Below the pieces are notes generated by a model. It was not told where the DNA came from, did no database searches, and was given only the letters and a program-made list of their open reading frames with translations. Positions 10,367-18,020 of a stretch of 64,000 nt of DNA are shown here, in pieces; positions within the stretch are counted from its first letter, which is position 1, and the number at the start of each line of letters is the position of its first letter. This DNA is from a virus (lineage: Duplodnaviria > Caudoviricetes). A program made the position numbers and the translations under genes. The stretch covers positions 96,001 through 160,000 of the IMG/VR virus record IMGVR_UViG_3300014000_000001. One strand, 5' to 3'.

Positions 10367-12334
10367 ATGGGTATGACTCAAATCGGCGGTGGTTCAAATA
10401 ACAACGACCGCAAAAATGATCGCGATAACAACAACTACGGTAATGACCGTGGTCGTGAGCGTTCTCAAGAAGATCGCGATCGTGCTGATCTTCGCGGCGC
10501 AAGTCAGAGCTTGCGCCAAACAGCAGCTAACCCATTCGGTACGGCTGTTTCAACTTCGCGCTCTCTAGGAGCACTCAACAACTACACTTCAAACTACGTT
10601 GCTGCAAAAACCCGTGGTAAATCAATCGATATGAAAACCTTCGTGGTTGAAGAAGGGGTTGCAGTTCCATCGGTAGTGATTGCAGCGATTGCAAGCAAAG
10701 ACAATCAAAAGTTTGTTATTTCGCACGCAATCATGTTGGTGAACAACGCCCAACCACCTGCTCCTTTATTGGATCAAAACATCCAAGGCATCATGTACCG
10801 TGACAACACCACATGGGCAGATGCTTACGATGATAAATACCAAGCTGCAATCATCGAAGTGGTTGAGCGTGATTTAGCGGAAAAGGTGGAATTCATTTCA
10901 GCAGGTGCGACTGCTGTAGATTATACCTTTATTCCAACTGAAAAGTTGTTGAATGAAAACAACTTCCAATCATTACAGTTGGACAACTTGATCTTAAACG
11001 TAATGAGTGGTATTGAAGCAGTTCGTGCAATCGAATCTGACGATACATCTCGTGACATTAAACCATCTAACTCAAACCTAGATGCACAAATCGTTGCTGA
11101 TGTATCATTACAACCATCAACTTCAACTCAGCCAAACGGTGATCCATTGGCAGAAGACTTCTTGATTAAGTTGTCAGAAGTACCGAATGATCGTCGCGAT
11201 CGTAAGCGTAACGAACCACGTTCATTAAACCAAACAGGTGAAAGCAACAACCGAGCTTATGGTGCGGTATCGGGCCGTATTGATTTTAAATATGTAGAAC
11301 CAGTTCAAGTAGCTCGTGGATGGCGTCCACAACCAGGTGATTCAGCTTGCTTTATCCCTGAGTTCATTATCGCTGGTTTCGATGTATTGGATATGCAACC
11401 AAGCTTAACACTGATGTTGCAATTGATTGCATCCGTTGGTATCTTGGATTCTCGTAATCCTCCGTTTTATCTTGATGCATTCTTACCTGCTAACTTAACC
11501 AATAACAGTTCTCGTAACTTAGGTGCGTTGCAGGCGGAAATGCAAGATCCTGAAAATGGTCAACGTTTGGAACGTCTGGAGTTAAAACCATCAACAGACA
11601 TGATCACTTTCCAAAAGTTCGTGACTGCCGCGATTCAGGAAAAAGTATCTATTGCAATCGAAATCCCAACTCAAGGTCCATTGGTTGGTTTGTTAAACAC
11701 CTTCGATCAAGCAGTAGATTACAATGGTCGTGAAGGTACTGAAGCCGCTTACTTCAATGGTTTAATTGTTGAAGCTGCTGATGTATTGACTGAAGGTGCA
11801 TTCAGTGACATGTGGACTCCTGGTACACCAGTAATGTTACGTAAACGTGCAATCATTCCAACTGGTTACTGGATTGATGGTCAACAAAACAAACGTGATT
11901 CACGTGAGTTTGGTTACCTTTACTATGCGAATGTGGATAACCCACAAGAAGCTTATGAGCTTTCAGTACAGTACGATAAGTCATTCGACATTGATGATCA
12001 ATTGATTGCAGCCGCTGAACGTCGTCGTTTAATCGAAGATGTACAAGGTAGCAATTTCGTACAAACTGATAACGTAAGCCGCGTGTATTTCAATCCAGAA
12101 TTCTTCGCATGTTTGCTTGATGCGATGAACAGCTCAGGCATGGCGCCAGCAATTGGTAACGCAGCTTATGCTGGTCGTGGTCAATCTCGTCGTCGTGTGG
12201 ATGACAGCAACTACCTTGACAGTGGTCGTCTGGAAAACTCTTACCAACGTTACAACGGTAATAGCCGTGATGATCGTGGTTACAACTATAACTCACGTGG
12301 TTACGGTGCTTCACGTAACTGGCGTATTCGTTAA
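10367..12334 (+). CDS. chmA: chimallin, major phage nuclear shell protein (phiKZ gp54-like)
   Basis: 655 aa, directly upstream of nvRNAP beta-prime; chimallin-type segments (IPTGYW.D...KRDSREFGYL, RVYFNPEF..CL..AM..SG); disordered N- and C-tails; highly expressed codon bias; own promoter and terminator. Confidence 0.85.
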   Translation: MGMTQIGGGSNNNDRKNDRDNNNYGNDRGRERSQEDRDRADLRGASQSLRQTAANPFGTAVSTSRSLGALNNYTSNYVAAKTRGKSIDMKTFVVEEGVAVPSVVIAAIASKDNQKFVISHAIMLVNNAQPPAPLLDQNIQGIMYRDNTTWADAYDDKYQAAIIEVVERDLAEKVEFISAGATAVDYTFIPTEKLLNENNFQSLQLDNLILNVMSGIEAVRAIESDDTSRDIKPSNSNLDAQIVADVSLQPSTSTQPNGDPLAEDFLIKLSEVPNDRRDRKRNEPRSLNQTGESNNRAYGAVSGRIDFKYVEPVQVARGWRPQPGDSACFIPEFIIAGFDVLDMQPSLTLMLQLIASVGILDSRNPPFYLDAFLPANLTNNSSRNLGALQAEMQDPENGQRLERLELKPSTDMITFQKFVTAAIQEKVSIAIEIPTQGPLVGLLNTFDQAVDYNGREGTEAAYFNGLIVEAADVLTEGAFSDMWTPGTPVMLRKRAIIPTGYWIDGQQNKRDSREFGYLYYANVDNPQEAYELSVQYDKSFDIDDQLIAAAERRRLIEDVQGSNFVQTDNVSRVYFNPEFFACLLDAMNSSGMAPAIGNAAYAGRGQSRRRVDDSNYLDSGRLENSYQRYNGNSRDDRGYNYNSRGYGASRNWRIR

Positions 12335-12351
12335 TACATAAGACATAATTT

Positions 12352-12383
12352 AAAGAAAGGAGCCTAGGCTCCTTTCTTTTTTC
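12352..12383 (+). terminator. terminator, perfect 28-bp palindrome
   Basis: AAAGAAAGGAGCCTAGGCTCCTTTCTTT plus T tract. Confidence 0.85.
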
Positions 12384-12411
12384 TATAAACTTTTTACCTG
12401 TGGAGTGATCA

Positions 12412-13687
12412 ATGTTTCAACGACATATCGATCCAGACTATCCTAATTTCACCTATGACCCAGCAGTTGTGGTGGCTTTAGATAACTTGGATGATTACTT
12501 TAAAGAGGACTCATCGGAACGCGAAGTGTTTATCGCAAACGACTTTCAGGTGGATACGGAAGACAAACGTGAACATCTTGTAGATATGTTAACCAAAACA
12601 TATAGTCGTGAATTTCTTGATGAACCAATCAATGGTGCAAATTCCTTGTTTGAGAAAGTTGCTCCGTCAATGTGGATACGTCCAGTGGGTAATGGTAAAT
12701 TTGTTCAACCTAAGTTTCTATCCATGCTCACTAAAGCACTCACTCGTGATCGAGTGAATATGGTGCAATATGCGATGGACCCAAGTTATAAACTACCCAT
12801 TACTAAAACTCCATCTGGATTACTTAAAACATTCTTAGATGCTGGGTTCCCACGTGGAATGAAAGCATTCCATGATCATTTCGATGAAATCATGGATATC
12901 CTAATCATGAATCAATATCGTAAGCGTGAAGCTCGTCGTAATGCAATAGGTGAAGGGCGTAGAACCTCTGCTCGTAACACGATGGATTACATTGCGATGT
13001 GTATTGAGAAATACCGAGATTCAATCTTTTGTGAACATTTACCTGTGCCGTCTAATCAGGTATTTATCATGGAAAAGCGTGGAAAGAATAAAGTCTCTGA
13101 AGTACCACTTATGCAGTACGCGTTTGATGCGGTACATACGGTGACTTCTATTTCATCACGTATCCGTGGTGTGTCTCCACGTGAAGCAGATCGACTTGAT
13201 TATAAAGTCAATGATCTGATGAGTGAGTTCTACGAGAAATACTCTCAAAATTATCTTACTTCTAAACCTGGAGTGTTCCGTAAAAACAGTTATGGTACTT
13301 CATCGTCGTTTAATGCACGAGCAGTAATTGTATCTCGTCAAGGGATTCAAAACTACGATGAGATCATCATCCCTTATTCATTAGGATTTAAAATATTCGA
13401 ACACCATATTGCGAAAATCTATATTGATGATAAGCAGTTTAGCCCAATTGATATTTTTGAAATGCGTGCTGAATATGCAAAACAGTTTAATAAAGGTATT
13501 CATAATGTGATGAACACCCTAGTCAGTGATTTCTGGGGTGGACGTGGATGGCCGAATAACTTCTTACGCCATCCATATTTATCAAAATTATCCTCTCAGT
13601 TCTTCTACATTCCAGAAGTAGGAACTGACCCTTTAGATACCACGATACAATTATCCCCAATGGTATTAAAAGGTCCCAACGCAGACT
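12412..13687 (+). CDS. nvRNAP beta-prime N-terminal subunit (phiKZ gp55-like), exon 1
   Basis: SKPGVFRKNSYG, NARAVIVS, LRHPYL, LKGPNAD; the exon ends GAC-T in the middle of NADFDGD. Confidence 0.9.
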
Positions 13688-14079
13688 CAACCATTTCGTT
13701 CAAATGTCGGGGTCCTTATCATGGTAACATGGTTCGAAAAACTTCGTTAATTGCTGGAACGTACCCTAAAGCCGCTTAGCTAGTATTAGCGTCGAAAGAC
13801 AGAAACAATAAAGCGGATGGTCTAAGCTTAAATGAAAGCTTATCTGTTTAGATAGGTGCTAAGGATCGTGTTTAATGGGCAATCAGCAGCCACGTTTGCA
13901 TAGGCTTCAAAAGAGTAATGGAAACAGGTTCGACGGTCGTGAGGGTTGCGCCTCTTAGCCGATTCATGGATGAACGGTGAAAATGAAGCGTCCTAGGATA
14001 AGTCCCACAAGGATAATGTTAGGATGGTGGTATGACCTATAGATTCTCGAAAGAGATGAACAAAAGGAACATTTAGTTT

Positions 14080-14106
14080 TAAAGATTACATAAAGTGTGG
14101 TTCAGT
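14080..14106 (+). repeat. left arm of a perfect 27-bp long-range inverted repeat
   Basis: TAAAGATTACATAAAGTGTGGTTCAGT is the exact reverse complement of 16028-16054. Confidence 0.95.
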
Positions 14107-14122
14107 AATGTGGAGAAAAAAG

Positions 14123-14881
14123 ATGTTAACCATTCTCGAACATATGGACTACGAACACCCAAACCCTGCAGTTATTAGCCATACTCAGGGTCGTTATGTC
14201 TTAGACAAAGACACTAAAATTGTCTATGATAACTATCTGAAAAAAGAAATTAATCCTGATCCGGATAGTGGGTTATATCCGATTAACGTCCTTGAACAAT
14301 ATAACATGACATACTGGGAATTATACATGTTGTCGTTCAAGGCAAATCATATCCCCACTCACGATTTCTTAAAAGCTCTAGGAAATGGCGCTATATTTGC
14401 TTATGTAGCACACCCCACTATCGATGCGGACGAGTTATCGATAGATCAGAATATACCTAGTCGGGATTTATCCTGGTTCATCGATGTGAAATGTTCAAAT
14501 ATAGCTGGAGCCCGGTATATTCCGACGTTTACTCGTTATGTGATGGATAACGATTTTAATATTTATCAATTAGGTGATGGGTCTTTTAAAAAGATTAATG
14601 AACCAATCCCTTGGGAAGCTGAAAATGTGGAGGAACAGCTTAATGATATAATTGTATTTCTTCAGAGAGATGATAATGTTTGGGAAGAAGTTTATTGGAT
14701 TGACCTTGTTGGGATAATGTTTCTAGAACCCAAAGATGATCCAATATTTGTAGATCATCTATTTACATCAAGACAGTATATATTTAATCAAATACCTCTG
14801 AAATTAGAAGATGTCGAAAGCGGTGATTGGTTATCACAAAATATCGATATGATTTTAGATGAAAGAGACGATGAGGATTAA
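14123..14881 (+). CDS. intron ORF1: degenerate, apparently nuclease-dead paralog of the adjacent HNH endonuclease
   Basis: GGAG RBS before ATG 14123 (track start 14108); YMLSFKANHIPTHDFLKAL ~ WMLTHKPLNIPAWDFIRAW; RYIPTFTRYV ~ YYIPGYTNYV; FVDHL lacks the GN..N..NL residues. Confidence 0.75.
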   Translation: MLTILEHMDYEHPNPAVISHTQGRYVLDKDTKIVYDNYLKKEINPDPDSGLYPINVLEQYNMTYWELYMLSFKANHIPTHDFLKALGNGAIFAYVAHPTIDADELSIDQNIPSRDLSWFIDVKCSNIAGARYIPTFTRYVMDNDFNIYQLGDGSFKKINEPIPWEAENVEEQLNDIIVFLQRDDNVWEEVYWIDLVGIMFLEPKDDPIFVDHLFTSRQYIFNQIPLKLEDVESGDWLSQNIDMILDERDDED

Positions 14882-14883
14882 AT

Positions 14884-16017
14884 ATGTCTAGCAAAAACAC
14901 TAACCGACCAATTCATCGCTGGCACCACAAAAACAAAGCGATATCCTATACTTTAAACCGTTTTGAATATGATCGATTGTTAGGTGTTGTAACAGATGTC
15001 GCCAATGGAGATATTATTCAGTTAATTGATGGGTATTTTCATTTAAATGATTTTATCTTTAATAAATTGACTGAAGCCGAAGCCTGGATGTTAACTCATA
15101 AACCCTTAAACATACCTGCTTGGGATTTTATCAGGGCTTGGAAGAATAACGAAATTAAGATCATAGGTAATTCAAGAAACCCTTCTAAAGATACTACGTT
15201 CTGGAAGTTTAAAATAGAATCTAGCTATTATCCTGGTTTCTATTACATTCCTGGTTACACGAACTACGTTGTTAACGAGAGTGGTCGAGTTATATCATTA
15301 TTTAAAGGGATTGAATTACGATTTCATTCTAACGGTGATGGTTATCTAACAGCGAATATGGTTTCGGATGACTCATTGAACGGCGTAGTTCCTATCCACC
15401 CGTTAGTTGCTTTTACTTTTAAGGATTGGAGTTTAGAGGATGTTATCAATAATGAAATAGATCATATTGATGGTAATACTGAAAATACTCATGAAAGTAA
15501 TTTAGAATTCGTATCTCAAGCAGAAAATATTAAGAGGATAGCTAGAAATAACTACTACGGTAAGAGAACTCACCATTGCGATATCTATTATCGGGATCTT
15601 AAAACAGGAGAAAAAGGTATTGTTAAAACCCAACGAGAACTAGCTAACCGAATTAGTGATTTAGGTGCGAGTACGATACAGAACCATCTAAGTAAATCCA
15701 AACCCAACGCGACCCTAAAGTCAAGATATGTAATCGCATATGTGAAAGATGAATCAGATATACAATACCTAGATGGTTTAGATGCTAAGTATTTTGATCT
15801 GCGTTCTGGTTCCCAGGCTAGAGCGACGCTGATAAAGAATATAAGCACTGGTGAAATCAAGCGTTTCGATAAAATGAGAGATGCTTTTAATTACATCAGT
15901 AGTATTATTAATATTACATTTAAACCATTTAGTGATAGGTTGGCGAAAGGTATTCAAAAAGATTTTGATGGTTATATCTTTAAATACGAAGATATAACAG
16001 ACGATTGGATTTTATAA
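14884..16017 (+). CDS. intron ORF2: NUMOD4-HNH homing endonuclease with C-terminal NUMOD1-like repeats
   Basis: IPGYTNYVVNESGRV (NUMOD4-like); IHPLVA..F...EIDHIDGNTENTHESNLEFVSQAEN (HNH); two (D/N)xxTGE repeats. Confidence 0.9.
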   Translation: MSSKNTNRPIHRWHHKNKAISYTLNRFEYDRLLGVVTDVANGDIIQLIDGYFHLNDFIFNKLTEAEAWMLTHKPLNIPAWDFIRAWKNNEIKIIGNSRNPSKDTTFWKFKIESSYYPGFYYIPGYTNYVVNESGRVISLFKGIELRFHSNGDGYLTANMVSDDSLNGVVPIHPLVAFTFKDWSLEDVINNEIDHIDGNTENTHESNLEFVSQAENIKRIARNNYYGKRTHHCDIYYRDLKTGEKGIVKTQRELANRISDLGASTIQNHLSKSKPNATLKSRYVIAYVKDESDIQYLDGLDAKYFDLRSGSQARATLIKNISTGEIKRFDKMRDAFNYISSIINITFKPFSDRLAKGIQKDFDGYIFKYEDITDDWIL

Positions 16018-16027
16018 CTATAAACCA

Positions 16028-16054
16028 ACTGAACCACACTTTATGTAATCTTTA
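16028..16054 (+). repeat. right arm of the 27-bp long-range inverted repeat
   Basis: ACTGAACCACACTTTATGTAATCTTTA. Confidence 0.95.
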
Positions 16055-16118
16055 GGCTAAAAAGATTTAAACTGTTCTTATGATTAGATACAAACTAATC
16101 ACTTAGGATACAAACCGG

Positions 16119-16303
16119 TCGACGGAGATGAGATGGTCTTGTCTCTTCATTTAGATAAATACACAGCAGATCTGTGGAGTTCAACTCGTCCTTCCGAGGG
16201 CGCATTGGATCAAAACAAAGCATTATCGTATTCAGGAGATTTAGATCTCTCTAAACCGATGATCCTTCAATTCTATCGATACCTAAGTCTCGATAAGAAG
16301 TAA
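16119..16303 (+). CDS. nvRNAP beta-prime subunit, exon 2 (spliced product 486 aa)
   Basis: TC-GAC-GGA-GAT-GAG-ATG... reads (F)DGDEMVLSLHLDKYTADLWSSTRPSEG...YLSLDKK*; not in the ORF track. Confidence 0.92.
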
Positions 16304-16325
16304 ATTTAATAATCTAGAGGTTAAA

Positions 16326-16961
16326 ATGAGAATCATTGAATTAGATGACGATTCAGATCGTGCATTAATCAGTGGTTATGTGGCACGAGAGGAAACCAGG
16401 CAGCGATTTGATCGTGATCGGGAGAACTTTCGAGAACGAGTAGGTCGTTACCGCGGTCGAGAATATCTTGACCGTTTTAGTGATTTCTCACGTTCGTTAG
16501 ATATTGATTACTTAGCCAGACGATCAATTGCAATTGGTCGTAAAATGCAATCTACATTTCGTGATGATACTATTTACGATATGCATACGGTTGCTGATTT
16601 CCAACATGCGTCTTCAAGAATGCAAAACTATATGTTGGCTGATTTAGAACTCAATTATCGTGCACGTAACCAACGAATGCAGGCTTGGTCTCGTCCAGTT
16701 GCTGATTACGCCTATCAGGAGAATGAAGATCCTAGAAATAATCCATATTATCGTGCGATGAATGATGGATACTTAAGAGTGTGTGAGGATGATAATAAGT
16801 CCATGTACGCTGAGAGTTTCCTAGGTCAAACTGAGCGAGATATGGACATCTTAAGTCATGATGAGAAGATGAGCTTACATCGTTCCGCTGCATTGCTTAA
16901 AGATCTTCTAGGTGAATACGGAGCAGAAGATCCAACATCTCCAGAAAACAATAGCCTTTAA
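16326..16961 (+). CDS. conserved Chimalliviridae protein (phiKZ gp59 / Imp3 position)
   Basis: 211 aa, AGAGGT RBS, C-terminal EDPTSPENNSL; synteny. Confidence 0.6.
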   Translation: MRIIELDDDSDRALISGYVAREETRQRFDRDRENFRERVGRYRGREYLDRFSDFSRSLDIDYLARRSIAIGRKMQSTFRDDTIYDMHTVADFQHASSRMQNYMLADLELNYRARNQRMQAWSRPVADYAYQENEDPRNNPYYRAMNDGYLRVCEDDNKSMYAESFLGQTERDMDILSHDEKMSLHRSAALLKDLLGEYGAEDPTSPENNSL

Positions 16962-16968
16962 TATATAA

Positions 16969-16999
16969 GTGAGCACTTCGGTGCTCATTTTTTATTTTT
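16969..16999 (+). terminator. terminator with cUUCGg tetraloop
   Basis: GTGAGCAC-TTCG-GTGCTCAT plus T tract. Confidence 0.85.
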
Positions 17000-17015
17000 A
17001 TTTATAGAGGTAATT

Positions 17016-17294
17016 ATGTTGGCGCTACCTAGAATTGTTTGTGCTGCAGTAATGAATAAAGATGGAATTATTATTCCATCTCCTAGGCATTTTGATGAAA
17101 CCTTCTGGAAACTCTTTGAAAGAATGGGATTGAAAGAAGAAGACAACCATGAATGGATTCAGGGGTTTATTGATCAGTTTGGTAAATTCTTTGATCGTGA
17201 AGAAGCTTTGATTATTGCAAAGCGAGAAAACCAAATTTATCGTGAATCTCCAAATGTTGATACCACTGAATTGTTTAGTGAGAATCTTTATTAA
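17016..17294 (+). CDS. small widespread phage protein of unknown function
   Basis: RIVCAA...QGFIDQFGKFFDREEA..IA...LFSENLY, a pattern recalled from many phages. Confidence 0.75.
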   Translation: MLALPRIVCAAVMNKDGIIIPSPRHFDETFWKLFERMGLKEEDNHEWIQGFIDQFGKFFDREEALIIAKRENQIYRESPNVDTTELFSENLY

Positions 17295-17324
17295 CAATTG
17301 CTATGAATGCAGGAGATTAATAAG

Positions 17325-17717
17325 ATGCCATCCAATCCATATCCTTCCATGGGTCCACAAGGTTATATTTACGATGCAGCGCAAAAGGCAGAATTTATTT
17401 TTGCAGATTACATCGCGGCTAAGAATTCACAAAGTACCTTGTTTTACGGACAAATCCAATCATTGTCCTTTGATGAGTTTAAAGGACAATACGAACCCAT
17501 TCTATCGGGTGAGGTGATTAAAGCTTCTTTAGAGAAGATTTATGATGCGTACTTTGATAGCGTGGATATTCAGGTGAGTGATAACCTCAATGAGGACACA
17601 CAAGTCACCAGAATTGAAATCACAGCAGATCTTAATGATAAAGGGGTTCAGTACCGTTTAAATGAGATCTTATCTGTGAATAACCAACGCATAAAACGAT
17701 TAGCGTCGTTTAACTAG
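17325..17717 (+). CDS. conserved protein (phiKZ gp62 position), possibly gp25/TssE-like baseplate wedge
   Basis: AGGAG RBS before MPSNPYPS; SQSTLFYGQIQSL; the fold is an inference. Confidence 0.55.
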   Translation: MPSNPYPSMGPQGYIYDAAQKAEFIFADYIAAKNSQSTLFYGQIQSLSFDEFKGQYEPILSGEVIKASLEKIYDAYFDSVDIQVSDNLNEDTQVTRIEITADLNDKGVQYRLNEILSVNNQRIKRLASFN

Positions 17718-17729
17718 AGGTCAATAATT

Positions 17730-18020
17730 ATGTCTAAATCAATAGGGTCAGACGATGGTCAAATTGCAATTAAAGTACACGCTGTTAATTTTACCAGTAT
17801 TGCTGATTTAAAACAAGGTGATGTTTACGTAAAGGTATCCCGTGAAGGTTTTGCTGAAATCAAAAACGGAGTGTTAGTAGATATTCCAATTGAACAAGTC
17901 CCGAAACCTTTAGTAGATTGTGCTCTTAGTTTTGAAAACCAACCTGAGAACAATCTTAAGTATCCATATGCTTTATATTTGGAGAGTATCAATGACACAG
18001 CAATCAAACCCAAAATCTAA
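17730..18020 (+). CDS. hypothetical protein
   Basis: 96 aa, AGAGGT RBS. Confidence 0.7.
   Translation: MSKSIGSDDGQIAIKVHAVNFTSIADLKQGDVYVKVSREGFAEIKNGVLVDIPIEQVPKPLVDCALSFENQPENNLKYPYALYLESINDTAIKPKI

Follow-up and report, generated by a model that had tools for sequence, protein, structure and literature searches.

A 27-bp inverted repeat that probably closes a two-gene cargo as helix P9.1 of a predicted group I intron in a chimallin-phage RNA polymerase gene

Group I introns tolerate large inserts in their terminal loops, the inserted open reading frames (ORFs) may creep into the ribozyme core, and small hairpins regulate the translation of the encoded endonucleases (PMC3073962, PMC2988022). 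In the case of the T4 td intron, an I-TevI ORF in the P6 loop, 'core creep' and a hairpin sequestering the ribosome-binding site (RBS) were described in the same two sources. The T4 nrdD (sunY) intron and its I-TevII ORF near the 3' end were also described (PMC2988022, PMC3984707). In PhiPA3, the virion RNA polymerase gene (gp211/209) is interrupted at its conserved aspartates by the gp210 group I intron, which carries an HNH homing endonuclease; the stems of this intron were not discussed, and such intron endonuclease elements mediate competition between co-infecting phages (PMC11620839). In the Bacillus HMU phages and beta22, near-identical ribozyme cores are reported to be combined with strongly diverged endonuclease ORFs (Goodrich-Blair and Shub 1994; Bechhofer et al. 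1994, in PMC11620839), which implies that intron and cargo have independent histories. IStrons combine a group I intron with an IS200/IS605 element at the intron 3' end (PMC4227781). The locus described here was found in a 64,000-nucleotide stretch of a Caudoviricetes virus (positions 96,001 to 160,000 of IMG/VR record IMGVR_UViG_3300014000_000001), hereafter the window, and is a known intron architecture in extreme form, with a closing helix, a two-ORF cargo and a clear comparative record. A long perfect inverted repeat brackets the two ORFs, and with a probability of roughly 75% its arms are the two P9.1 strands, which would close the cargo off as a loop and bring the splice site back to the core. 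Unless a contig is named, positions are those of the window, and all features lie on its + strand.

The two arms, at 14080–14106 and 16028–16054, were determined by a repeat search of the window to be 27 nt long and 100% complementary, with 1921 nt between them. When up to three mismatches were allowed, just these two copies were found in the window, and none of 100 shuffled sequences yielded any. Only these two copies were present in the 232,790-bp virus genome, and the pair ranked first in an exhaustive genome-wide scan for perfect inverted repeats with a spacing of 100–6000 nt. Repeat search, shuffles and genome scan bore out the perfect 27-bp repeat, about 1.9 kb apart, that had been reported in a preliminary description of this DNA. 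The placement given there was also accurate, as the left arm ends at 14106, ahead of a GGAG at 14112–14115, and the stop codon of ORF2 ends at 16017, with the right arm 10 nt on. The sole other perfect inverted repeat longer than 15 nt was a 22-nt self-palindromic hairpin, AGAAGCTCCCTAGGGAGCTTCT, with two identical copies 3.5 kb apart outside the window (genome positions 198387–198408 and 201869–201890), possibly a repeated terminator.

Imperfect pairing beyond the arms, likewise proposed earlier, was recovered by minimum free energy (MFE) folding and by cofolding, G.U pairs included. According to the MFE structure and ensemble of the full intron and the cofold, a left outer extension containing G.U pairs (14065–14079) faces a right outer extension (16055–16079) composed of 16055–16061 and 16073–16079 around an 11-nt bulge; 14065–14071 paired with 16073–16079 and 14072–14078 with 16055–16061. 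Including these extensions, the stem amounted to approximately 41 bp, and the wobble pairs and the single 11-nt bulge lay outside the 27-bp perfect centre. Cofolding of the whole stem gave −50.5 kcal/mol with 38 Watson–Crick and 3 G.U pairs, and in the thermodynamic ensemble computed for the whole 2.45-kb RNA, the 27 central pairs had a mean probability of 0.98. In the extensions, 3–4 G.U pairs were formed by the sense strand versus 0–1 by the antisense strand, and the sense strand was more stable by 5–10 kcal/mol.

The gene 5' of the locus encodes chimallin (Pfam PF25677, PHROG 4795). The next gene was identified by PHROG, tblastn and alignment with Noxifer gp51 as that of a non-virion RNA polymerase (nvRNAP) beta' subunit, whose N-terminal part is encoded by exon 1 (12412–13687). 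Exon 1 matched PHROG 2987 (RNA polymerase beta subunit) with an E value of 4e-74, and its tblastn matches were the nvRNAP beta' genes of jumbo phages. When the ORF at 12412–13779 was compared with its homologs, the RNA polymerase beta/beta' proteins of nucleus-forming jumbo phages, the alignment ended at residue 425, where the ORF reads ...KGPNAD and Noxifer gp51 has ...KAPNADFDGD. Exon 1 ends with AAC GCA GAC T, that is, N-A-D and the first base of Phe, and a downstream frame reads ...DGDEMVLSL.... From frame reading and alignment, exon 2 (16119–16303) starts with TC GAC GGA GAT GAG and completes F-D-G-D-E. Joining T13687 to T16119 gives AAC GCA GAC TTC GAC GGA GAT, or NADFDGD, and restores NADFDGDEM. 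On the basis of this junction, of P1 and P10 and of seven homologous introns occupying the same site, a group I intron of 2,431 nt was delimited at 13688–16118. The last base of the 5' exon is U. The intron itself closes with a G (omega-G), both in the window and in each of the six relatives whose 3' splice site was mapped. The inverted repeat is thus located in a predicted group I intron that splits the NADFDGD motif of a chimallin-phage nvRNAP beta' gene.

The ribozyme core (P1–P9, 13688–14056) was drawn by hand; each helix was then tested against an alignment of seven intron cores, and the structure was compared with an RNAalifold consensus. The hand structure and alignment comprise P1 (13684–88/13710–14), P2 with a GUAA loop (13718–23/13728–33), P3 (13742–48/13982–88), P4 (13752–57/13883–88) followed by P5 with extensions, P6 (13889–91/13903–05), P7 (13935–40/14032–37) with P7.1 and P7.2, P8 (13990–95/14020–25) and P9 with a GAAA loop (14045–48/14053–56). 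The alignment displayed the classical P, Q, R and S elements, and P7.1 and P7.2 are located between P7 and P3', as in subgroup IA. Compensatory changes were found among the seven introns in P2, P3, P5a–e, P7, P7.1, P7.2, P8 and P9; in P7, for example, GGUCGU/AUGACC of the window is replaced by GACUAU/AUAGUC in the contigs L009 and L012. RNAalifold gave 88 consensus pairs for the seven introns, 50 of them with compensatory double changes. In P1, GACU|C pairs with GGGUC at 13710–13714, the internal guide being 13705–13714. The first six bases of exon 2, UCGACG, pair with 13705–13710 as P10, which covaries at the second exon-2 base (UCGACG/UGUCGG with C-G in the window, UUGACG/UGUCAG with U-A in L008). 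From these features, the core is that of an IA-like group I intron predicted to be self-splicing.

Several further observations concern this core. In L009 (2217–2229) and L012 (4049–4061), the homologous intron is inserted 2 nt downstream, after GAC TAT of NADYDGD, and the guide is matched to the new site (CUAU/GUAG). The P5 extension (13819–13867) contains CUAAG / UA(A/U)G, a motif similar to the 11-nt GAAA-tetraloop receptor, and with GAAA loops on P9 (14049–14052) and on a P5 sub-hairpin (13794–13797), a tertiary contact is possible.

Downstream of the core, the elements follow in the order P7' (14032–14037), P9 (14045–14056), left stem strand (14065–14106), cargo, right stem strand (16028–16079), P9.2 and 17 nt of which the last is the omega-G. 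P9.2 (16081–16101) is a hairpin of 7 bp with a 7-nt loop and a fold z-score of −3.2; an A>G change at 16086 in the related contig L016 retains a G.U pair, and another contig, L034, forms a different hairpin instead. The left strand begins 9 nt past the GAAA-capped P9 hairpin. As the stem lies between P9 and P9.2/omega-G, the repeat corresponds to P9.1, and both ORFs (14123–16017) fall wholly within its loop. In an ORF-less paralogous intron (L017:3091–3555), P9, P9.1 and P9.2 are three short serial hairpins, P9.1 having 5 bp.

We propose that the core, P1–P9, would be transcribed first, followed by the 1.92 kb of cargo (ORF1 and the HNH-type ORF2). On emerging, the right arm would pair with the left arm into the helix of approximately 41 bp with its 27-bp perfect centre, and the cargo would be shut off as a giant terminal loop. 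The helix would thereby return the last 64 nt, with P9.2 and the terminal G at 16118, together with exon 2 and its P10 bases, to the core for the second splicing step. Selection would act on the pairing rather than on the sequence, and the unusual stem length would most likely be needed for reliable folding around a long, translated two-gene insert. The preliminary description had likewise proposed a long-range helix that extrudes the cargo from the P9 region and sets the 3' splice site beside the core, and the covariation described below supports this reading.

To examine the pairing comparatively, syntenic contigs (chimallin, exon 1, intron, exon 2 and a 211-aa gene) were collected through protein homologs of ORF1 and ORF2. 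In the 238-kb contig L016, the left arm differs from that of the window by 14093 A>G, 14094 A>C and 14104 A>G, and the right arm by 16041 T>C, 16040 T>G and 16030 T>C, precisely the partner positions. All three changes per arm are compensated; therefore, the stem again consists of 27 perfect pairs. The arms of the window and L016 were 88.9% identical and the cores 97.4%, with zero uncompensated arm changes, and a single change in the extension, 14070 C>T, keeps a wobble pair. The L016-type right arm was present in four more contigs, and no mixed arm types were observed where both arms were visible.

In a third lineage (L017–L022), the left arm agrees with that of the window over its outer 12 nt and bears no resemblance to it beyond them, the inner 15 nt being lineage-specific. 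The breakpoint, at 14091/14092, was the same in an independent sequencing run; L021 and L014, from one sample, did not overlap. The right arm of this lineage was predicted from the left arm beforehand and then found in L034, which comes from the same sample as L022. The resulting stem has 23 perfect pairs (25 with the variant of L021) and approximately 38 bp in total, and all three two-ORF lineages have the outer 12 bp in common. An exact-pattern scan of IMG/VR with the third-lineage arm gave no match. A single match in a Joint Genome Institute metagenome (L030) was an unrelated GC-rich contig and was dismissed as a chance match.

Between the window and the third lineage, exon 1 and the core were 98% identical, and exon 2 with the next gene 97.5%, whereas the block from 14092 to the 3' splice site (16118) was only 61–69% identical. 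The right arm lies in this block, yet its outer 12 nt match at 12 of 12 positions, an outcome expected in less than 1% of cases at approximately 67% identity, and these 12 nt are exactly the partners of the unswapped left-arm bases. The retention of the right outer arm across a recombination boundary fits selection on the pairing, as judged from these alignments. In single-ORF homologs, the corresponding position is occupied by bracketing helices of 8–18 bp that contain mismatches and G.U pairs and are unrelated in sequence; such unrelated stems were found in L009, L013, L015, L008 and L012. The preliminary description had staked its RNA reading on arm conservation or covariation in homologous introns, and these were found in the double changes of L016, the third-lineage stem and the stems of the distant homologs. 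The comparison of sequences thereby establishes the repeat, its place in the predicted fold and the conservation and covariation of its pairing.

The closing helix has 5 bp where there is no ORF, 8–18 bp with one ORF and 38–41 bp with two. From this series we infer that stem length is tuned to cargo length, for which the trend is suggestive; splicing, too, would probably depend on the stem. The earlier proposal that the stem is what allows a two-gene cargo is consistent with the trend and remains plausible, but the lineages are few and not independent.

Several points weigh against the P9.1 clamp or its proposed extent. About four lineage groups, related to one another rather than independent, underlie the trend of stem length with cargo length. 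In L005 and L008, the ORF abuts the splice site and there is little or no bracketing stem; therefore, a long stem is not obligatory in this intron family. The central 23–27 bp contain no G.U pair or mismatch in three lineages, which is more perfect than RNA function usually demands, and one compensated pair of L016 is a transversion (A-U to C-G) adjoining another change. Rfam gave no match in the window, either for 12000–18000 at E ≤ 1 or for the whole window at the gathering score; the homologous core of L009 scored 30.1 bits against RF00028 over the full model (E 4e-4), short of the gathering score of 50. Finally, the spliced joint was not seen in contigs of RNA-type runs.

In L005 (6128–6136) and L008, the endonuclease ORF itself reaches the 3' splice site, a case of 'core creep'. 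In L008 (6101–6125), the stop codon TAG provides, with its G, the terminal base of the intron, and the ORF contains the right strand of the closing helix.

Other roles of the duplex, and other reasons for its perfection, were considered. In nucleus-forming jumbo phages, where splicing would occur without ribosomes and be followed by RNA export, the closing helix may have been lengthened to a perfect duplex of at least 23–27 bp with a second role, in which it would mark the excised intron for double-strand-specific processing or handling and so free a two-gene endonuclease mRNA that can be translated, and the length of the stem would co-evolve with the size of the cargo; this idea is speculative, and we consider it unlikely. 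A rival reading, in which the duplex serves mainly RNA handling and not folding, either as an RNase III-type site that frees the endonuclease mRNA from the ribozyme or by controlling cargo translation together with a local hairpin, is rather improbable. Perfect duplexes of at least 22 bp are a known type of RNase III substrate, and the 27 perfect Watson–Crick pairs reach the length of about two helical turns or more at which RNase III acts on a duplex. Moreover, the stem ends 5 nt before the Shine–Dalgarno sequence of ORF1 and resumes 10 nt after the stop codon of ORF2, and both a local alternative to the right arm and a weak hairpin able to cover the ORF1 Shine–Dalgarno sequence recur in all three lineages. 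However, the RBS is left uncovered by the long stem itself, and the local alternative reaches only −2.8 kcal/mol compared with about −50 kcal/mol for the long stem, with an ensemble probability of approximately zero. The contigs of the sequencing runs showed no RNA ends.

This local hairpin (16047–16067), found in the MFE structure of the isolated tail, pairs AATCTTT at 16047–16053 with AAAGATT at 16061–16067 and uses the last 7 nt of the right arm, the −2.8 kcal/mol being that of the hairpin alone. It was present in the isolated-tail MFE structures of the window, L016 and L027, and in L034 with another loop; in the full-intron ensemble, its pair probability was approximately zero versus 0.98 for the long stem. 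The hairpin noticed in the preliminary description thus exists and recurs in three lineages but is thermodynamically negligible, and the splicing or translation switch suggested for it is unproven. A kinetic role is possible.

Copying between the arms as DNA, by template switching, gene conversion or quasipalindrome correction, would make the length and perfection of P9.1 a mutational by-product, with RNA pairing only loosely required. The absence of mismatches and G.U pairs from the central 23–27 bp of three lineages would be explained in this way, as would the adjacent changes at 14093–14094, which are mirrored exactly and include a transversion that has no neutral wobble intermediate; in these sequences, the adjoining transversion pair is a hint that one arm was copied from the other in patches and that the changes were not selected step by step. 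However, arms that are short and 1.9 kb apart are generally unfavourable for copying by template switching or conversion. The extensions bear strand-specific G.U pairs, distant homologs have imperfect stems at the same place, and the conservation of the right outer arm across the recombination boundary fits selection. Copying as the principal cause is accordingly held to be quite doubtful; arm copying or recognition of a regular duplex, e.g., by RNase III, may possibly have contributed to the perfection of a stem that is otherwise best read as P9.1.

The weakest alternative, also raised in the preliminary description, that the arms are terminal inverted repeats of a mobile or swappable cassette moving or inverting as DNA, is most improbable, for although the repeat is perfect and free of wobble pairs, cargo has clearly been exchanged between introns with approximately 98% identical cores and the left breakpoint falls within an arm, there is no transposase or recombinase (Pfam and PHROG give HNH for ORF2 and nothing for ORF1), only one copy is present per genome, the arms differ between lineages and change in compensatory fashion, the exchanged block has its left limit in the middle of the left arm (14091/14092) and its right limit at the 3' splice site, not at the two arms, the flanks are complementary and not direct repeats, which leaves no target-site duplication, and no inverted or excised form was seen in the complete contigs L016 and L023 or in the contigs of the sequencing runs. 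The mosaic fits an exchange of cargo by recombination between co-infecting phages that carry such introns, as far as the alignments indicate.

The first cargo gene, ORF1 with its RBS (14112–14881; GGAG at 14112–14115, likely start ATG at 14123), encodes 252 aa without a family match. It lacks an HNH motif; approximately 145 aa at its N-terminus are paralogous to the corresponding part of ORF2. ORF2 (14884–16017) starts 2 nt past the ORF1 stop and encodes a 377-aa protein of HNH homing-endonuclease type, as indicated by PHROG 59 and 959 (E 1e-18), Pfam HNH_3 being below the cut-off; in other phages, the same intron carries an ORF2 homolog as its only ORF. Homologs of ORF1 at the same position were 86% (L016) and 55% (third lineage) identical. 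Between the window and L016, the differences at codon positions 1/2/3 were 25/18/47 in ORF1 and 9/4/66 in ORF2. The ORF1 protein therefore evolves much faster than ORF2, yet it has remained open in three lineages (252, 252 and 256 aa). The GGAG of ORF1 can pair with codons 4–6 of the same ORF (14108–14143), and analogous weak hairpins occur in L016 and L017; this is possibly an RBS sequestration as in T4 endonuclease genes. An identical 238-nt metatranscriptome contig falls within ORF1 and is no proof of transcription. Inspection by eye showed no resemblance of the cargo flanks to the exon junction that would be a trace of sunY-type invasion.

Gene callers extended the exon-1 ORF by approximately 30 codons into the intron (13688–13779) and called exon 2 as a separate orphan protein of 56 aa (16133–16303), and all related contigs were annotated likewise. 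No DNA-level match to deposited phages was found by megablast or blastn, and IMG/VR scans with exon 1, ORF1 and ORF2 gave no useful relative, L004 being merely a distant HNH match. Proteins of 513–514 aa that clustered with the exon-2 mini-ORF were considered as intron-less alleles and rejected as unrelated, terminase-like proteins brought together by a clustering artefact. No intron-less allele of the beta' gene was found among the relatives examined.

The same motif is occupied by other introns. The 465-nt ORF-less intron (L017:3091–3555; also in L018–L020) sits between AAT (N) and GCA (A) of NADFDGD and leaves a 7-nt micro-exon, GCAGACT, before the main intron; therefore, two tandem introns lie inside NADFDGD in these contigs. 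In L031, L032, L036 and L037, the same exon-2 protein is preceded by a different intron at a site shifted by 2 nt (3' splice site ...CTCTCCG|GACGGGG), whose cargo is an HNH ORF of 418–420 aa and whose tail is unrelated. The NADFDGD catalytic motif thus appears, from these insertions, to be a hotspot with several competing intron types.

The tolerance of a ribozyme for a large insert can be studied at this locus in a natural experiment, as the same family includes introns with no ORF (the paralog), one ORF and two ORFs. It also provides a natural series of closing stems from 5 to approximately 41 bp, with exact compensation and with pairing kept across a recombination breakpoint. Clamp lengths selected in nature may serve as a guide for engineering group I introns with large inserts. 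Moreover, the annotation is corrected: the NADFDGD of beta' is split by an intron, the orphan protein is exon 2 and the exon-1 ORF is over-extended. The non-virion beta' gene is a second RNA polymerase gene among the known targets of intron endonucleases in chimallin phages.

Among known systems, the closest are the introns of T4 nrdD (sunY) and PhiPA3 gp210. That of T4 nrdD is another phage IA-type intron; its endonuclease ORF lies between the core and the 3' terminal domain with the splice site, so that long-range pairing must reunite the two. The sunY ORF is said, in work attributed to Michel et al. 1992, to lie in the P9.1 region. Unlike T4 nrdD, the present intron carries two ORFs (1.9 kb) of which the endonuclease is HNH and not GIY-YIG, its closing helix is 27 bp perfect and approximately 41 bp in total, and its host gene is the RNA polymerase of a nucleus-forming phage. 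As in T4 td, an ORF is tolerated in a terminal loop, core creep is seen (in L005 and L008) and a small hairpin can cover the RBS, here that of ORF1; however, the cargo is located in L9.1 and not L6, and the long stem does not sequester the RBS. IStrons share a DNA cargo module in the 3' part of a group I intron, whereas here there is no transposase gene and there are no multiple genomic copies, and the arms behave as an RNA helix. The mosaic reported for the HMU phages and beta22 is also seen between the window and the third lineage; here, the breakpoint was mapped inside the closing helix, with the pairing preserved across it. Similar to PhiPA3 gp210, the locus belongs to a chimallin-type jumbo phage with an HNH group I intron at the conserved aspartates of a multisubunit RNA polymerase; the PhiPA3 intron, however, carries one ORF and interrupts the virion gene, whereas the intron described here carries two and interrupts the non-virion beta' gene next to chimallin.

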